A DNA stretch of 64,000 bases. Source: Chiloscyllium plagiosum. Lineage: Eukaryota. The notes below the pieces were generated by a model. That model worked only from the letters and a program-made list of their open reading frames with translations, did no database searches and had not been told where the DNA came from. A program made the translations under genes and the position numbers. This document shows positions 27,426 through 54,776 of the stretch, piece after piece. Numbering within the stretch: position 1 is the first letter of the stretch; each line of letters starts with the position of its first letter. Location: the NCBI RefSeq assembly GCF_004010195.1, contig NC_057719.1:8242224-8306223 (forward strand). Direction: 5' to 3'.

Positions 27426-28499
27426 CTGAGTCCAGGTCTTTTTGACCAGCAGCGATGGAGGATAGCTACAATTGACTCTTCAGGAAAAGAAGATTAACGT
27501 CAAGGTGTAGTTAATTCCGTGAAAGCTCTTGGTTTGGGTTTCATTGGCGGTCAGACGAAATTGCAAAGGCCGTCGGGAACCAGAGTTGGTACATCTGTCT
27601 CCTTGGTGAGGGTGGGGGAATCCTCATGTATAGTCTCCACCCAACACTGTGTGCCATCATCAGGCTGTGAAATCACTAGCCCCTTCAGAGCTGACAGCTT
27701 ATTTACAGCTAATGTCTTTGCTTAAAGTAACGCAGCAGGGAATAGGAGAGTACTCTAGCAATGTGCAGTGGGCTCCTTAATCCCTGGGAAAGTCACCATA
27801 TGCCCATACTGCTTTTCCAGTTACCTTTGACTGAAATTCAACTCTGTGAGTGCCCCCTGCGGAGGACTAATGTAAGAACCTGCTCCTCCTCTGAAGTTTG
27901 CAATCCTCCACCAGCCACTCAGCCCTCCCTCACCCCTCCCCACCTCCTTCAGGGTGTAAGTTCTGTCTGATTGTCCATATACAGGGTTGCACTGCAGTGG
28001 CAATCACTCTCACTGCACGCAGAACCTCTCGGCCAGCAAAGGTGCCATAATATTCAGTCTGTGTGTGTGTGTGTGTGTAGCTCTCTCCAGACCCATCCCA
28101 TCAGCACTGTAGGCTAATGGCCTGCTGGTTAGCACATGGGAGGCTGTGGGAGCTTGCTGTGCGTGAATTGGCTGATGGATGGTGCTCCTTGCCTTACAGC
28201 AGTGGGACACGCCGGTATGTGCCTCCATTTGGCCTTCAAGCCTTCGCCAATGTTGTTAGGGCTTTGCAGGCGCCATACAAATGCACGCCCTTCCTTTTTT
28301 CACTGATGAAACTTTGACCGTAAAGTTCCCGGAGCAGACTCAAAACAAAACTCAGACTGAACTCTCTCTCTCTCTCTCTCTGTGTGAGTATCTATTACTT
28401 CCACATTTTTCCAACAACAAACGACATTGAAGCTTCGGGTAATCCTGTTTTTTTTTGGAATACAATCTGCGTTCGGTTTTTTTTTGAAACACCAAGTTG

Positions 28500-28570
28500 A
28501 CTCTTTTCCAAAGCGAGCAGCTCACGTGAAGATTTTTCCGGGAGATTAGCCGGGCTCTGTGTATATATGG
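28500..28570 (+). promoter_or_regulatory. Core promoter of the deiodinase gene: palindrome TCACGTGA (28522-28529) and TATA box (TATATA 28562-28567)
   Basis: Motifs seen directly ~400 bp upstream of the ATG and followed by a purine-rich leader. The TSS (~28590-28600) is inferred from TATA spacing only. Confidence 0.65.
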
Positions 28571-28702
28571 ACGGCACTCCAGCAGCTCCTACAGACTCTG
28601 GGACTCGTCTCAAGGGAGCAGCGTCTGCAAACTGGGGGAGAGAGAGAGAGGAGAGATAGAGAGGGGCAGGACAAATATATAGAGAGAGGGGGGGCAGGAG
28701 AG

Positions 28703-28714
28703 ATGGAAATTTAG
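28703..28714 (+). promoter_or_regulatory. uORF1 (ATG GAA ATT TAG; M-E-I-stop)
   Basis: gagATGG strong Kozak context, within the predicted 5' UTR. Confidence 0.6.
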
Positions 28715-28793
28715 AGAGAGAGAGGCAGGAGCGATAGGAGAGAGAGCTGGAGAGTAACATTGGCCAAGCTGAAACAAGAGTTTTAAACGAGTG

Positions 28794-28802
28794 ATGGAAT
28801 AG
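28794..28802 (+). promoter_or_regulatory. uORF2 (ATG GAA TAG; M-E-stop)
   Basis: gtgATGG strong Kozak context, within the predicted 5' UTR. Confidence 0.6.
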
Positions 28803-28969
28803 TTTTCCCAGCATTTTGAAAAGTGTAAGAGCGTCCACCTGGGGGAGAAAAAGACAGCTACAGACCCCAGGGTCTCCTTTCTGCTCTCTCTCCCCCAATT
28901 CCCAGCACTAACCCCTCCTCCCCATAGAGGTAGAGGAGGGTGGTGGGAGGGGAAGGGGAAGGGGCAGGG

Positions 28970-29821
28970 ATGGGTTTGCGCAGTGTTGACCTCCTCATCA
29001 AGCTGCAGATCCTGCCGGGTTTCTTCTCCAGCTGCCTGTTCCTGGCCGTGTACGATTCGGTGGTACTGCTGAAGCAGGCAGTGTCCCGCCTGAGCGGTCC
29101 AGCAGCTGGAGATGGAGTGCCCCGCATGCTGACGGTGGAGGGGATGCAGACGGTGTGGAGGAGCTTCCTGCTGGATGCCGCCAAGCCGGTGAGGCCGGGG
29201 GGCCAGGCCCCCAACCCCCGGGTGGTGAGGCTGGGCGAGCGGCAAGGTGAGGCGGAGCGGCTGCAGAGGGTGGGAGGCCTGGCGGAGTGCCGCCTGCTGG
29301 ATTTTGCCAGCCCTGGGCGACCCTTGGTGGTCAACTTCGGCTCGGCCACCTGACCCCCCTTCGTGGCCAGCCTGCCAGCTTTCTGCCGCACGGCGGAGGA
29401 GTACCAGGCTGGCGCTGACTTCCTGCTGGTCTACATCGATGAAGCTCACCCCTCAGACGGCTGGGCTGCCACCTCGCCCTTCCAGCTGCCCCGTCATCGC
29501 ACCCTGGCCGAGAGGTGTTCCGCCGCTAGCCTCCTCCTCCGGCACTTCCCGGTGCCCCCCCAGTGCCCGGTGGTAGCCGACTGCATGGACAACGAAAGCA
29601 ACGTGGCGTACGGCGTCTCCTTCGAGAGGTTCTGCATCGTGCAGGACCAGAAGATTGTGTACTTGGGGGGCAAGGGGCCCTTCTTCTACAGCCTGGCAGG
29701 GGTCAGGGCATGGCTTGAGCAACACCGTCTGAAACAGGGGGCAAAGGTTGGCAGCGATGCCCCCCACGACCTCCCGGCTCCCATTCCAGCTGCTACCCAC
29801 AGCCCTCAACTGGACGTATAA
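28970..29821 (+). CDS. dio2: Type II iodothyronine deiodinase-like selenoprotein, single coding exon, 283 aa, Sec (TGA) at 29351-29353
   Basis: ORFs 28940..29353 and 29363..29821 are in the same frame and joined by TGA-CCC-CCC-TTC. Joined protein: MGLRSVDLLIKLQILPGFFSSCLFLAVYDSVVLLK...RPLVVNFGSAT-U-PPF...DFLLVYIDEAHPSDGW...AYGVSFER...QKIVYLGGKGPFFY. These are D2-type motifs (N-terminus resembles D2 MGILSVDLL..LQILP.FFS.CLFLA.YDSV.LLK; Ala two residues before Sec where D1/D3 have Cys). ATG in strong context gggATGG. No frameshift or other internal stop. Ortholog versus paralog is unresolved, so read the symbol as dio2-like. Confidence 0.95.
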
Positions 29822-30650: not shown

Positions 30651-30714
30651 TCTCTGTTCTAAGTTATTGAGTTCCTGGGTCCACCTGCAGCAACCGATGA
30701 GGCCAGGCTGGGGA

Positions 30715-30802
30715 GGGAGTGCGTGTGCAGAATGAAGATAACTGACCAAAGAGTCCTGCACTCAGTCAGTATTCGGAAGAGGAAGCAGCACTGCCCACTC
30801 CC
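30715..30802 (+). promoter_or_regulatory. SECIS element (type II) in the 3' UTR of the deiodinase gene
   Basis: ATGA at 30732-30735; helix II GATAACTGAC / GTCAGTATTC; unpaired AAA at 30748-30750; apical mini-stem GAGT/ACTC; GGAA at 30775-30778 completes the GA/GA core; lower stem GGGAGTG (30715-30721) / CACTCCC (30796-30802). Lies between the stop codon and the poly(A) signal. Confidence 0.9.
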
Positions 30803-30924: not shown

Positions 30925-31397
30925 AGGTTTTGTAGCTGACTTGTTTCCGTGATGCTTTATTTAATTGTACAACAATAACTGAGGGACCCTGCCTCTGACC
31001 TGGAAGGTGGGCTCCAAAGATGTCCTCACCCATCCTGTCAGATTGGTTACATATATTTGTAATGGGTGTCTGGTTATGTTGCAGTGGTAGCTGACTTCTT
31101 TTGCATCTGTGTTTGGTTATTTAATTGAACAATGATTGAGGATCCCTTGTGGTGCTGTGGTAGTGTCCCTACCTCTGAGCCATAAGGCCCACATTCAAGT
31201 CCCACCTGGTCCAGAGGTGTGCATTAACATCTCTGAATAAGTACTTTAGGAAATATCTGTGTTAATAATTGTCCCAAAGCCACTCTGCAGTTAATGAATT
31301 ACTTTCTAAACGCTTAGTCAGTGACACTGCCATGTGACAAAGAGCAAGATTTAGTTTTTGTTTCAAAGTGATATTGATTGGGAATAAATATTGGCTA

Positions 31398-34032
31398 CTC
31401 AGCAAATGGGGGATGATCTCTCCTGCTTTCCTTTGAGACACGCCTCGGGCGAGCGTTGCTGCTCACCCACCTGTCGCTGCTTACTAGCTGAATAGGAAAT
31501 AACCAACCCCCGAGCATAGGCTTTAGCTGTTTCCCAAAGAATGGATGGGCTACTGGCTGAGTCTGAGTTAATATCTAAAAAAGCCCTGAGCTCAGTAAAA
31601 AAGAATTCAATAAACTTGTTATCCTTAAGGATGAAGGGGTCCAGTCGCCAGTGCCTTGAGCCTACCACTGTATCCTTATTCTTAACCATTAAATACACTA
31701 GGGTGTGATCAGAAATAGCCATTATGCCAATTGTACATGACATCTCCGAGCTCAGATGTGCTGCGGGAGTCAGAAAAAGATCAATCCTGGTATGGCATTT
31801 ATGTGGGTTCGAAAAGAACATGAAGTCCCTGCCAGTTGGGTGAAGGTGCCTCCAAACATCTACCAACCCCAATTCAGCACATGAATTCCTTAATCGTTTA
31901 GATCGCAAAGAAGATATCAGTGGGCCTTCAGGCAATCTGTCTCCCGTAGGGTCTATGAAACAATTGAAATCCTCTCCAATGATGATTTGTTGAGATACAA
32001 GGTTAACCAGTCTAGAAAGTGCGTCTGTCAAGAATTTAAGGGGGTGGGATGGGGGACAGGAAACATTTAAGATCCCGTATTCTTCCCCATGTATCAAAGC
32101 TTTAAGGATTACAAATCTCCTGTGTGTGTCTTTAATGCACTCTAAAAACTTAAATGAGAGATTCTTTCTAACTAGAATGGCCACCCCTCGAGTCCTCGTA
32201 TTGAAAGATGAAAAATAAACCCAGTCATACCCATTCTGTTGCAGCTTCAAATGTTCTGCATCATCCAGTTGTGTTTCTTGTAATAAGGCAAGATCCATCC
32301 TCTCCCTTTTAAGGCTGGAGAATACCTTCTTCCTCTTGACAGGTGAATGACTCTTCTTAATATTCTAGGTGCACCATTAGCCATGACCTTCCATAGCACC
32401 ACCTAGAGTCCAGAGAGGAAGAACCCAAACTGCAGATTGCTGAGCTTTAATGCAAAAGAATCTACAAAACCCAAAAACTACACAGACTAAAATAACTACA
32501 GCCAACAAATCTACAAAACTTACAAAATCTATGTACAGCAAAAACAGAAACACAAAAAATTGTCAAAGGCACTGATTGGAGGAACCATCCCGACCGCCCT
32601 CTCAAATCCTACCAACTCGGGTCATACCACATACACCAACCGCCGTCTCAACTCCGACCAACCCGGGTCGTGCCACATACACCAACCGCCGTCTCAACTC
32701 CGACCAACCCGGGTCATACCACATACACCAACCACCCTCTCAACTCCTACCAACTCGGGTCGTACCACATGCACCAACCACCCTCTCAACTCCTACCAAC
32801 TCGGGTCATACCACATACACCAACCACCCAGTAGAGAAAAAAACAAACACCCAAAGCAAGGTTTGTAATATAAACAAGTAATCTAAAAATAACCATGTTA
32901 CCCATCCCTTAACATAAGTTAAAAATTAAAGATAAATACTCTATCCATCCCGGACATCATTTCACGCAACTTATTACCAGAAAGGAGACTCCACCAAGTC
33001 CTTTTTAAAAAAGATTAAACGTGAACAGCTCTGTCCTATTCGGCCATTCAACTTAAGTCAATGTGACCACAAAGTTCTTCATTTTTTCTGGCGAGTCGAA
33101 CAAATGGATGAATCCGTTATGATTAATCGGAAGCACTACTGGATATCTTAAAGAATACGGGATCCCATGCTCTCTCAATCTCCTCTTGACACCGTCGTAG
33201 GACTTCCTTCTCCGGACCACTGCCGCCAAGAAGTCTTGAAAAAACATGATCCTGGAGCTGCCACATACCAACGCCCTCAGGTCCCTCCCCTGGGTTTGAG
33301 AGGCTTCCATGACCTTCTGCTTGTCTTTATAATGATGGAACCTCACCAGGACAGGACGTGGGCACTGCTCCATGCCTGGCCTTCATGCCACGATCCGATG
33401 GGCTCTTTCAATTGTTATCCTTCCCTTCTCAACCTCCAAACCAAGGAACTCCAGGAACCACTTCTCAAAGAACTCCACCGGCCACTCACCTTCTGTCCTG
33501 TCCAGTATGCCAACAAAGCGCAGGTTCTTTCTCCTGCCCCTGTTTTCGGGATCGTTTACCAGATCCAACAGACCCTGGTCCTGTGTTTCCAGAGCTTCAA
33601 TCCGGCTCTTGGAGGAGTCAGTCTATGCATCTTCCCCACCAGCCTGGCGCTTGAGCTCATCGGTCCTTTGTCTCAGGTCTTGCACAATAGCATATACAGA
33701 AGCCAGCTTCTCCCTGATTTTTCCTGGATCTGCCTCCCCAGGACCTCACGAGATCTGGCCAGCTCCTCAACGAGGGTCTGGTGAATAAGCGAGCCTGCTG
33801 CTTCAGACGACTGGGCCATGGCCCGGGCCCTGGATGGGCTTCCTCCTTTCGTCCCATTCTCCAGCTGCAAGGACAAAGGTAAGTCAATTTTTTTTCAAGT
33901 TTCTAGCTCTTTTCCTGTGTTTTTACTCGCAATAAAGTGTTTGGGATGGATCCTGGCTCTGTTGGGTCAGTGTTGCAGTGCAGAACCCAGCAAATGAGAT
34001 CCTAACAGGACGCCGCCATCTTGGTTCGCCCC
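31398..34032 (-). mobile_element. L1-clade LINE, 5' portion only (5' end, degenerate ORF1, ORF2 endonuclease)
   Basis: 5' end GGGGCGAACCAAGATGGCGGC; ORF1 motifs ENRGRRKNLRFVGI, IERAHR, PRPVLVRF, IMFFQDF; APE motifs LLQET, RGVAILV, IIGEDFN, DVWR.LHP, TRIDLFL, ISDH. No RT seen. Confidence 0.9.
32593..32830. repeat. 46-bp tandem repeat (~5 copies) in the L1 inter-ORF region
   Basis: Unit aaccgccgtctcaactccgaccaacccgggtcgtgccacatacacc; offset 32641 to 32687 = 46. Confidence 0.9.
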
Positions 34033-51102: not shown

Positions 51103-54100
51103 CATAAGACCATAAGACATAGGAGTGGAAGTAAGGCCATTTGGCCCATCGAGTCCACTCTGTCATTTAATCATGGCTGATGAGCATTTCAACGCCACTT
51201 ACCCACACCCTCCCCATATCCCTTAATTCCTTGCGAGATTAAGAATTTATCAATCTCTGCCTTGAAGATATTTAATGTCCCGGCCTCCATTGCTCTCCGT
51301 AGCAATGAATTCCACAGGCCCCCACACTCTGGCTGAAGAAACATCTCCTTATTTCCGTTCTAAATTGACTCCCTCTAATTCTAAGGCTGTGCCTACAGCT
51401 CCTAGTCTCCCCGACTAACATAAACAAATTCCCAGTGTCCACTCTTTCTAAGCCACGCATTATCTTGTAAATTTCTATTAGATCGCCCCCCAACCTTCTA
51501 AACTCTAATGAATACGATCCCAGGATCCTCAGCCATTCATCATATGTTAGACCTACCGTGTGAATCTCCACTGGACACGCTCCAGTGCCAGTATGTCCTT
51601 CCTGAGGTGTAGGGCCCAAAATTCTAAATGGGGCCTAACTTGAGCTTTGTGTAGTCTCAGAAGCACATCGCTGCTTTTATATTCCAACCCTCTTGAGATA
51701 AATGACAACATTACATTTGGTGTTTTCACCACGGACTCAACCTGCAAATCAACCTTTAAAGAATCTTGGATTAGCACTCCCAGGTCCCTTTATGAACTTC
51801 AGCTTTATGAATTTTCCCACCGTTTTGAAAATAGTCCATGCCTGTATTCTTTTTTCCAAAGTACAAGACCTTGCATTTGCATACATTGAATTTCATCAGC
51901 CATTTTCTGGACCATTCTCCTAAACTGTCTAAATCTTTCTGCAGCCTCCCCACCTCCTCAGTACTTTCTGCCTGTCCACCTAACTTCATATCACTGGCAA
52001 ACTTTACCAGAATGCCATCAGTTCCTTCATCCAGATCATTAATATATAAAATGAACAGCTGCGGCCCCAACACTGAACCCTGCAGGACAACACTTGTCAC
52101 TGGCTGTCATTCCGAAAAAGAACCTTTTATCCCAACTCTTTGCCTCTGTCATACAGCCAATCCTCAGTCCATGCCAGTAGCTCATCTTGAGCACCATGGG
52201 CCCTCACCTTACTCAGCAGCCTCCCATGAGGCACCTTATCAAATGCCTTTTAGAAGTCTAGGTAGATAACATCCACCGGGTTTCCCTGGTCTGATCTACT
52301 TGTTACATCTTCAAAGAATTCTAACAGGTTTGTCAGGCATGACCTTCCCTTACTAAATCCATGCCGACTTGTTATAATCCAACCCTGCACTTCCAAGAAT
52401 TTAGAAAACTCATCCTTAACAATGGATTCTAGAATTTTACCAACAACCGAGATTAGGCTAATTGGCCTATAATTTTCCATCTTTTGTCTTGATCAATGGG
52501 GGTTACAACAGCGATCTTCCAATCATCTGGGATTTTCCCTGACTCCAGTGATTTTTGAAAGATCAGTCAGCGCCTCTGCTCTTTCCTCAGCCACCTCCCT
52601 CAGAACTCTAGGATGTGGCCCATCAGGGTCAGGAGATTTATCAGTTTTAGACCTTTTAGCTTTTCTAGCACTTCCTGTTTTGTAATGGCTACTATATTCA
52701 ACACTGCCCCCTGATTCTCCTTAATTGTTGGGATATTACTCATGTGAAGACTAACACAAAGTACTTATTAGCTTCTTCAGCTATATCCTTATCTCCCATC
52801 ACTAGCCTTCCAGCATCAATGTGGGGCAGCCCAATGTCTACTTTTGCCTCTTGTTTCTTTACTATTGTTTCTAATATTACTGGCTAGCTTAGCTTCATAT
52901 TTGATCCTCTCCTTCTTTATTTCTCTCTTTGTTATCCTGTTTGTTTTTGTAGTCTTCCTAATCTTCTGAGTTCCCAGTGCTCTTGGCCATTTTATAGGCT
53001 CTCTCTTTTTCTGTGATACATTTCCTGACTTCCTTTCTCAGCCACGGCTGTCTAACCACCTCCCCCCCCACCAACCCCCAAATACTCTTTGTTTTCTTTG
53101 GGATGAACCTCTGTACTGTGTCCTCAATTACATCCAGAAACTCCTGCCATTGTTGCTCTACTGTCTTCCCCACTAGGCTCTGTACATAACTCCCACTATG
53201 GTTTTTTTGCCTTTGTGGTTCCTCAACTCCACCCACACAGACTCCACATCATCTGACCCTGTGTCATTCACTGCCATAGATTTAATTTCATTCTTAACTA
53301 ACAAGGTAACCCTGCCCTCTCTGCCAACCACCCTGTCTTTTTGATAAGTTGTTAATCCTTGGATGTTTAACTGCCAGTCCTGACCCCCTGCAACCATGTC
53401 TCTGTGATGCCTACCACATCATAATCATTCATGATGACTTGTGGCATTAATTCATCCAACTTTGTTACGAATACTACAAGTATTCAGGTAAAGTGCCTTA
53501 ATGCTAACTTTCTTATCATTATTAGAGATATTGGAAATTATAGGATGTCCGAAGTTATCCTCCCTTTTTGCTGCCTTCCTAGTCTGCCTCGAGCTTAAAC
53601 CCACCTGCACACCTGCTGTCCTGCTGCTTATCTTTCCATGTAACTCCATACTCCCTGTCACTTTCGCTGTCCCTTCTCCCCGACTCAGAAGTTTAAAGTC
53701 CCAGTGACCACCCTATTTATCCTTTTCGCTAGAACCCTGGTTCCAGATCGGTTCAGGTGGAGACCGTCCCATCGGTACAGATCCCCCCATGAAATGGAAT
53801 CCCTCTTTCCCACACCAATGCCTGAGCTACGTGTTTACTTCCTTAACTTTCTTATCCCTATGCCAATTGGCGCATAGCTCAGGCAGTAATCCGGGGATTA
53901 TGACCCTTGAGGACCTGTTCTTCAATTTCCTTCCGAGTGTTTGATAATCCCTAAACAGGTCCTCTACACTAGCTTTGCCTATGTTGTTAGTCCCGAGGTG
54001 GACCACAACAACTGGATCCTCCCCTTCCTGCTCCAATATCATTTCAAGCCGGTCGGAGATGTCCTGCGCCCTGGCACTGGGCAGGCAACACAGGGACTCC

Positions 54101-54150
54101 TGATCCAACTTGCATAGGATACTATCTGTCCCCCTAATTATAGAATCCCC
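51103..54150 (-). mobile_element. Near-full-span, degenerate CR1 LINE (ORF1 esterase, ORF2 endonuclease and RT, tail)
   Basis: ORF1 PVVVVHLGTNNIGK; EN LYLNTCSIRNK and VWVELRN..GVMYR; RT NYRPISLISVVGKILE, QGSVLGPQLFILYINDL; tail repeat cataagac. Frameshifted and internally deleted. Confidence 0.9.
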
Positions 54151-54204
54151 GATAACAACAACAAATAGTACTGCAACAACGTGCAGTGATATGATTAGAT
54201 AATA

Positions 54205-54776
54205 TAGTCATAAGATGGAAACAGACCCTTTGGTCCAACCCGTCCAACCAGATATCACAACCTAATCTAGTCCCGCTTACCAGCATTTGGCCCATATCCC
54301 TCCAAACCCGTCCTATTCATATACCCATCCAGATGCCTTTTAAATGTTGTAATTGTACCAGCCTCCACCACTTCCTCTGGCAGCTCATTCCATACACGTA
54401 CCGCCCTCTAAGTGAAAAAAGTTCCCCTTAGGTTCCTTTTGAATCTTTCCCCTCTCACCCAAAACCTATGCTCTCTAGTTCTGGACTCACCCAACTCAGG
54501 GAAACAACTTTGTCTATTTACCCTATCCATGCCCCTCATGATTTTATAAACCTCTATAAGGTCACCCCTCAGCCTCCGATACTCCAGGGAGAACAGCCCC
54601 AGCCTATTCAGCCTCTCCCTGTAGCTCAGATCCTCCAACCCTGGCAACGTCCTTATCAATTTTTTCCGAACCATTTCAAGTTTCACAACATCCTTCCTAT
54701 AGGAGGGAGACCAGAATTGCACACAATATTCCAAAAGTGACCTAACCAAAGTCCAGTACAGCCACAACATGACCAC
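54205..54776 (-). mobile_element. CR1 LINE 3' fragment
   Basis: LEYCVQFWSPSYRKDV...LRGDLIEVYKIMRG. Confidence 0.85.

Follow-up and report, generated by a model that had tools for sequence, protein, structure and literature searches.

Induction of DIO2 by TSH through cAMP serves photoperiodic timing in quail, sheep and herring, as described in PMC4104039 and PMC8233318, and the CRE of DIO2 is the cis end-point of that pathway. A CRE in the proximal promoter and induction through the TSH receptor and cAMP are reported for human DIO2 (PMC10160551), control through a CRE is likewise reported for herring DIO2 (PMC8233318), and the elasmobranch thyroid axis is described as little known (PMC7681243). 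The 64-kb stretch of Chiloscyllium plagiosum (bamboo shark) DNA analysed here, which we call the window, raises the question of whether sharks share this pathway, and an E-box at the position of the CRE offers a sharp and cheap test of it. In our literature search, which did not extend to figures or to most subscription journals, neither the promoter of a shark DIO2 gene nor a shark DIO2 lacking its intron was described; among the figures not covered is the DIO tree of PMC13134290, which may show shark exon structure.

The DIO2 gene of the window

The coding sequence listed in Table 1 specifies a type 2 deiodinase, the selenoenzyme that converts T4 to T3 and thereby activates thyroid hormone. 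The Pfam family T4_deiodinase (PF00837) matches residues 5-252 with an E value of 1.7e-85, and the protein carries the SAT-U-PPF motif together with a DIO2-type N-terminus. Against mouse Dio2 it scores 224.8 bits, against Dio3 158.8 bits, and it has SAT before the Sec residue as Dio2 does, whereas Dio3 has SCT; an identity as DIO3 is ruled out by both observations. In its N-terminal half, the protein has 97% identity with Chiloscyllium punctatum chiPu_0007781, 88% with a whale-shark protein and 69-72% with Scyliorhinus torazame scyTo_0007720; in its C-terminal half, it has 65-70% identity with a protein of Callorhinchus. The window thus comes from a bamboo shark near to, but distinct from, the source of the C. 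punctatum record. The models chiPu_0007781 (127 aa) and scyTo_0007720 (125 aa) end at the Sec codon, which is the usual misannotation of selenoproteins. The window protein extends about 30 residues past the usual DIO2 end (29729-29821) to a TAA stop codon, and the shark-like fragments P0119 and P0120 and Callorhinchus P0123 end much earlier than it does.

Table 1. Positions of the DIO2 gene and of known or putative elements around it (window coordinates)
Feature	Position	Strand	Remarks
CRE-like TAACGTCA with CGTCA half-site, then TTCCGTGAA	27495..27523	+	about 1.1 kb upstream
GTAATCCTGT, contains TAATCC	28439..28448	+	similar word in herring at about -218
CTCTTTTCCAA	28501..28511	+	named in the first-pass annotation; 10 nt upstream of the 8-mer; putative element
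E-box 8-mer TCACGTGA	28522..28529	.	perfect 8-bp palindrome with canonical CACGTG at 28523-28528
Anchor AGATTAGCC	28543..28551	+	reads AGATAAGCC in both teleosts; 13 nt after the 8-mer (herring 13, L001 12)
TATA-like box TATATAT	28562..28568	+	aligns roughly with TATAAT in L001; putative function
Predicted 5' UTR	28588..28969	+	GA-rich; two upstream ORFs of 2-3 codons; start at about 28588-28592
Single-exon DIO2 CDS	28970..29821	+	283 aa, intact; Sec codon TGA 29351-29353 (codon 128)
SECIS candidate	30708..30802	+	ATGAA core at 30732, AAA bulge 11 nt later, extra mini-helix, GGAA core, outer helix
Poly(A) signal AATAAA	30919..30924	+	X17 and X19 contigs cease matching at 30932 and 30923

The SECIS candidate was identified with a pattern search of our own and with folds. 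Its fold is only modestly stable (z -1.64), and Rfam gave no SECIS match at E values up to 10. None of the metagenome loci retrieved for the promoter comparison below contained a SECIS with which to compare it. The distance from the UGA codon to this element is about 1.4 kb; for mammalian Dio2 a distance of roughly 5 kb, far longer than that of the shark, is given in PMC3316567.

Part of the stretch is contained in 20 of 24 sequencing runs, none of them recorded as RNA, and four runs (X14, X17, X19 and X21) were compared with it. Contigs of X14, X17 and X19 span the coding sequence without a joint and appear to trace a transcript that reaches from about 28.6 kb to 30.93 kb, although the labelling of runs as RNA is guesswork and contigs mark neither a start nor an end. 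The raw single-cell run X21, of which about 2% was sampled, contributed a single uninformative read, at a GA repeat. Among the coding differences listed for X17, 9 of 13 fall at third codon positions by hand count. On the open frame and the predominance of third-position changes we reject a pseudogene, and the DIO2 gene looks alive.

The promoter module and its teleost counterparts

The promoter pieces named in the first-pass annotation were all located in the window. As that annotation had said, the 8-mer differs from a CRE by two symmetric base changes, at positions 2 and 7, with the ACGT core unchanged; it lies 448 nt upstream of the DIO2 ATG. Taken alone, its presence is at chance level, since the window holds one copy of TCACGTGA and shuffled sequences hold a mean of 0.43 copies, with at least one copy in 39 of 100 shuffles. 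CACGTG occurs four times in the window. The CpG of the 8-mer has been retained in a window with a CpG observed/expected ratio of 0.28, but the ratio local to the site is 0.33-0.6, so this survival is weak evidence. The state of the 8-mer could be read in this genome and in X14 only, the X14 contig having the same 8-mer and 0 differences across 28438-28661. The contig of X17 (about 2.5% diverged) that covers the site has 9 differences in 201 nt and is compatible with either state of the 8-mer. No full or half CRE is present in 27800-28969, that is, within 1.17 kb of the ATG.

For comparison we had the promoters of two teleosts. A metagenome scan yielded 65 loci (278 kb), two of which, L001 and L002, contain DIO2 exon 1. 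The teleost locus L001 includes 534 nt of upstream sequence with a perfect CRE and, 12 nt on, AGATAAGCC; the upstream sequence of L002 is too short for a promoter comparison. The second promoter is that of herring DIO2, mapped by 5' RACE, which has a CRE at -66 and AGATAAGCC 13 nt later (PMC8233318, Suppl. Fig. 4). We derived a two-part motif from L001 (a CRE with up to two mismatches, a spacer of 12-13 nt, and AGATAAGCC with up to one mismatch) and searched both strands of the window with it. A single match was observed, at 28522 with a spacing of 13. In Markov simulations a match arose in 14 of 150 (mean 0.093 per window, 0.0008 per kb), a null figure that is somewhat kind because the mismatch limits were chosen with the window known. 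Among the 65 fetched loci, only L001 itself matches.

The sequence 3' of the 8-mer was then compared with L001, leaving the 8-mer out. These 25 nt are outscored by 302 of 122,576 window positions (p ~0.0025), and in a control anchored on ACGT, 3 of 150 sites score as high, the real site included. The flank 5' of the 8-mer gives no significant alignment to L001 (p 0.19-0.43). The herring promoter aligns by eye and ungapped with 28510-28554 at 28 of 45 positions (binomial p 1e-5 to 2e-4, with bounds picked after inspection). The 8-mer is identical to herring at 6 of 8 positions and its flanks at 22 of 37, so that conservation of the core does not clearly exceed that of its surroundings. When the upstream region was compared with the 65 metagenome loci by blastn or local alignment without an anchor, the module was missed; only the anchored tests detected it. 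No relative was found among the viral contigs searched, one short, chance-like match (L066) was the only hit in the bacterial genomes searched, and a bacterial promoter scan, irrelevant here, was empty.

Because the motif derived from L001 matches only at 28522 and the herring promoter aligns without gaps, we conclude that the E-box very probably sits at the site orthologous to the CRE of teleost DIO2. The claim that this is a DIO2 proximal promoter is thus borne out by the anchored alignment to L001 and herring. One correction concerns the mammalian context that the annotation gave as matching the flanks: CTCTTTTCCAA, its 5' piece, is not adjacent to the 8-mer, and since 10 nt separate the two it is out of register with that context.

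The module shares with both teleost promoters an ACGT-core dyad, AGAT(A/T)AGCC 12-13 nt downstream and an AT-rich or TATA-like box, and with the herring promoter also, if the projected shark start is right, the distance from dyad to start. The shark differs in having TCACGTGA where the teleosts have TGACGTCA and in its form of the anchor, and its dyad is 448 nt from the ATG compared with 228 nt in L001. Compared by description rather than by alignment, the human and mammalian promoter belongs to the same gene and is reported to have a proximal CRE, which the shark lacks. The anchor is the sole AGAT(A/T)AGCC in the window on either strand. It contains AGATAA, which we take to be a GATA-type word, in both teleosts, and AGATTA in the shark, whose reverse strand reads TAATCT, presumably a K50-homeodomain word. 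This difference is possibly a second site change beside the 8-mer.

Projected without gaps, the start site determined in herring by RACE falls on 28588, about 26 nt past the TATA-like box, and we place the likely shark start there. The depth of the X17 contig is 4.85 over 28400-28601 and about 29 from 28651, and X19 has no contig before 28633, although a start site cannot be read from contigs. In X14, the contig extends from 28438, upstream of the 8-mer, across that site, so some transcripts may start further upstream if X14 is RNA. The GA-rich stretch of the 5' UTR at 28630-28760 varies in length among X14, X17 and X19, and the very short upstream ORFs lie at 28703 and 28794.

Two more distant upstream words were also compared with herring. 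The TAATCC within GTAATCCTGT is presumably a K50 homeodomain site, but the word GTAATCC that shark and herring have in common is too weak to count, with a match somewhere in the window in 25 of 100 shuffles. The other is the CRE-like site at 27495, followed by TTCCGTGAA, which we take to be STAT-like. This pattern, defined post hoc, has one match in the window and none in 100 shuffles. Herring has a distal CRE at -287 with TTCCGTTGAA 9 nt later (PMC8233318, Suppl. Fig. 4, read by eye), of which the module at 27495 is possibly the counterpart, giving the two promoters a possible second likeness. The distal site may keep some cAMP or cytokine input, and because it is a variant CRE with a CGTCA half-site, a loss of cAMP control is uncertain.

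What an E-box in place of a CRE would do

CREB requires a TGACG half-site. E-boxes flanked by T and A suit USF, MiT/TFE, DEC1/2 and CLOCK:BMAL1 and disfavour MYC/MAX, which we rejected as the first candidate factor for its preference against a 5' T. In the arrangement that we propose, the module would run from the ACGT-core dyad through 13 nt to AGAT(T/A)AGCC, the TATA-like box and the start site. The teleost and mammalian dyad, a CRE, would allow TSH, cAMP and CREB to induce DIO2. In the shark, two symmetric differences around the same ACGT core would make the dyad an E-box for bHLH dimers (USF, MiT/TFE, DEC1/2 or CLOCK:BMAL1), and CREB binding would be lost because no TGACG half-site remains. 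The expected outcome is basal transcription, or transcription linked to the clock or to stress, with proximal cAMP induction weak or absent. A smooth path between the two states could lead through a one-step intermediate that is half CRE and half E-box. Judged from the sequence, we lean slightly towards a functional exchange of a bZIP site for a bHLH site in the core promoter of bamboo shark DIO2, at the old locus of the gene. Like the targets of CLOCK:BMAL1, DEC1/2, USF and MiT/TFE, the shark promoter has CACGTG with T/A flanks near the start; it differs from them in that the site is single, without a tandem partner, and in its outer flanks, which are C and A and do not complete GTCACGTGAC.

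The competing explanation is that the 8-mer is a decayed CRE without function, a palindrome by luck, and that cAMP control was lost or shifted to the distal TAACGTCA. A CRE has 252 two-change variants, of which 12 are palindromes and one, the shark 8-mer, holds CACGTG. If a CRE decayed evenly, CACGTG would be reached with a probability of about 0.002 and any new perfect palindrome with one of about 1-1.5%; the calculation was set up after the result had been seen. These figures favour a selected dyad site over decay, as do the retained CpG and the retention of the adjacent anchor motif and its spacing, but a new palindrome does arise in that small share of decay outcomes, the 8-mer alone is at chance level, shark DIO2 proteins sit on long branches, and a distal CRE-like site is available at 27495. 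Weighing both sides, we consider decay rather unlikely.

If the E-box is functional, circadian control is only one option among the possible bHLH inputs. A second E-box-like element 6 bp from the 8-mer is absent, the nearest other CANNTG words being at 28278 and 28836, and 27800-28969 contains no D-box or RORE pattern. Tandem E-boxes are reported to be required for cell-autonomous rhythm (PMC2254435). BMAL1 is reported to bind the mouse Dio2 promoter (PMC12620852), so bHLH input to Dio2 has a precedent, and retinal Dio2 is reported to oscillate (PMC12620852, PMC6585523). That clock factors are the main users of the shark E-box is possible, if doubtful.

Orthology, the missing intron and the direction of change

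In the shark, the coding sequence continues without interruption at 29188/29189, exactly where teleosts have an intron after ...KQ. The intron is present at this position in L001 and in L002, where it is 1548 nt long. In an alignment of 20 rows picked from 120 listed matches, the Q whose codon forms the splice donor is found in 15 of 15 other rows and is absent from four named shark rows and from one row that groups with them. The absence of the donor Q from these rows hints that other sharks lack the intron as well.

A tree of the N-terminal half (28 rows with a cnidarian outgroup and no DIO1 or DIO3 rows) places the four named sharks in one group with support of 91/83. In a tree of the C-terminal half (22 rows, likewise without DIO1 or DIO3), the window, Callorhinchus and two more rows fall outside the bony-vertebrate group (87/98) and are unresolved among themselves. 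Chondrichthyan DIO2 branches are long, and those of the carpet sharks are the longest. A search with the window protein returned one gene per named shark among the best 120 of 145 matches. Likewise, a search with coelacanth DIO2 returned, as named shark matches, the same genes only among the best 120 of 214. No named shark appears among the 116 matches of a search with the full-length protein.

The absence of the intron, together with an identity of only about 60% to bony-vertebrate DIO2, would fit a duplicate or retrocopy, with an intron-bearing, CRE-driven DIO2 elsewhere in the genome and the E-box marking sub-functionalisation of a paralogue; DIO2 duplicates are reported in salmonids and lampreys (PMC13134290). 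What speaks against this is the promoter itself. A retrocopy would not carry sequence from upstream of the start, and the promoter module is homologous to that of an intron-bearing DIO2 upstream of the expected start, so the gene is not a promoterless retrocopy. This result supports the proposal of the first-pass annotation that the gene kept its ancestral promoter rather than arising as a retrocopy. In addition, no A run, as a remnant of an A-tail, follows the poly(A) signal after 30924, the coelacanth query brings up no further shark gene among its best 120 matches, and the portion of PMC13134290 available to us reports no chondrichthyan DIO2 duplicate. We thus regard a duplicate or retrocopy as very unlikely. 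The gene is most likely the shark DIO2 orthologue at its old locus and not a "DIO2-like" extra copy.

The usual DIO2 locus lies between NRXN3 and CEP128/TSHR. In the 220 of 257 non-repeat ORFs searched (28.2-31.1 kb left out) we found no host gene domains, the matches being to retroelement domains together with one weak match below the cut-off. The rest of the window is rich in repeats, with 43% self-matching or N. An L1/Tx1-like retroelement fragment occupies 31399-33900 on the minus strand, about 0.5 kb past the poly(A) signal, with an endonuclease domain at E 1.6e-12, and other LINE fragments lie at 51774-52492 and 53830-54207.

All vertebrate selenoprotein genes except Dio3 and SPS2b are stated to be multi-exon in PMC3316567. 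The shark gene is an exception to that statement and may represent a third kind of intronless vertebrate selenoprotein gene. With DIO3 and the placental SPS2b, as described in PMC3316567, it shares a single coding exon, an in-frame UGA and a 3' SECIS candidate. It differs from them in that its sequence is that of DIO2 and, unlike the SPS2b retrogene, in that it keeps a promoter homologous to that of intron-bearing DIO2. Most intronless predictions are pseudogenes according to PMC13134290, and intronless genes like shark DIO2 risk being filed as such.

The statement that the CRE was "replaced" by an E-box holds in one part: the E-box does sit at the CRE position of two teleost promoters. The direction of change in that statement was an assumption, with no outgroup to fix it, because every example of the CRE considered here (L001, herring and human) comes from bony vertebrates and sharks are their sister group. 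For the same reasons, the E-box could be the older state, either chondrichthyan-wide or ancestral to jawed vertebrates, with the CRE having arisen in bony vertebrates. The single exon might then be old too, as the pattern of the donor Q and the intronless Dio3 genes (PMC3316567) would allow; sharks may have lost the intron, or bony vertebrates may have gained it. The long chondrichthyan branches, the carpet-shark branches most of all, favour a derived change instead, and we consider an older E-box quite unlikely. Because of these branches, the shark state is probably derived and the CRE the older of the two.

An exchange of CRE for E-box would be a clean case of a change in factor class, bZIP versus bHLH, at one orthologous site, and shark DIO2 may answer to different signals than DIO2 of bony fishes does. 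Sharks and bony vertebrates separated more than 400 million years ago. In the widest reading, cartilaginous fishes as a group would run a single-exon DIO2 from a bHLH E-box set directly by the clock or by USF/MiT factors, and, when sharks and bony vertebrates diverged, two substitutions in a single promoter site would have made or broken the TSH-cAMP-CRE-DIO2 switch that times seasonal breeding in birds, mammals and teleosts. We consider this unlikely.

The metagenome scan also brought up deiodinases from other animals. Three loci (L035, L044 and L052) encode invertebrate deiodinases with an in-frame TGA in unbroken frames and may be transcripts, and in several of the coral-like loci within L003-L017 a perfect CRE precedes the matched region by about 720-800 nt.
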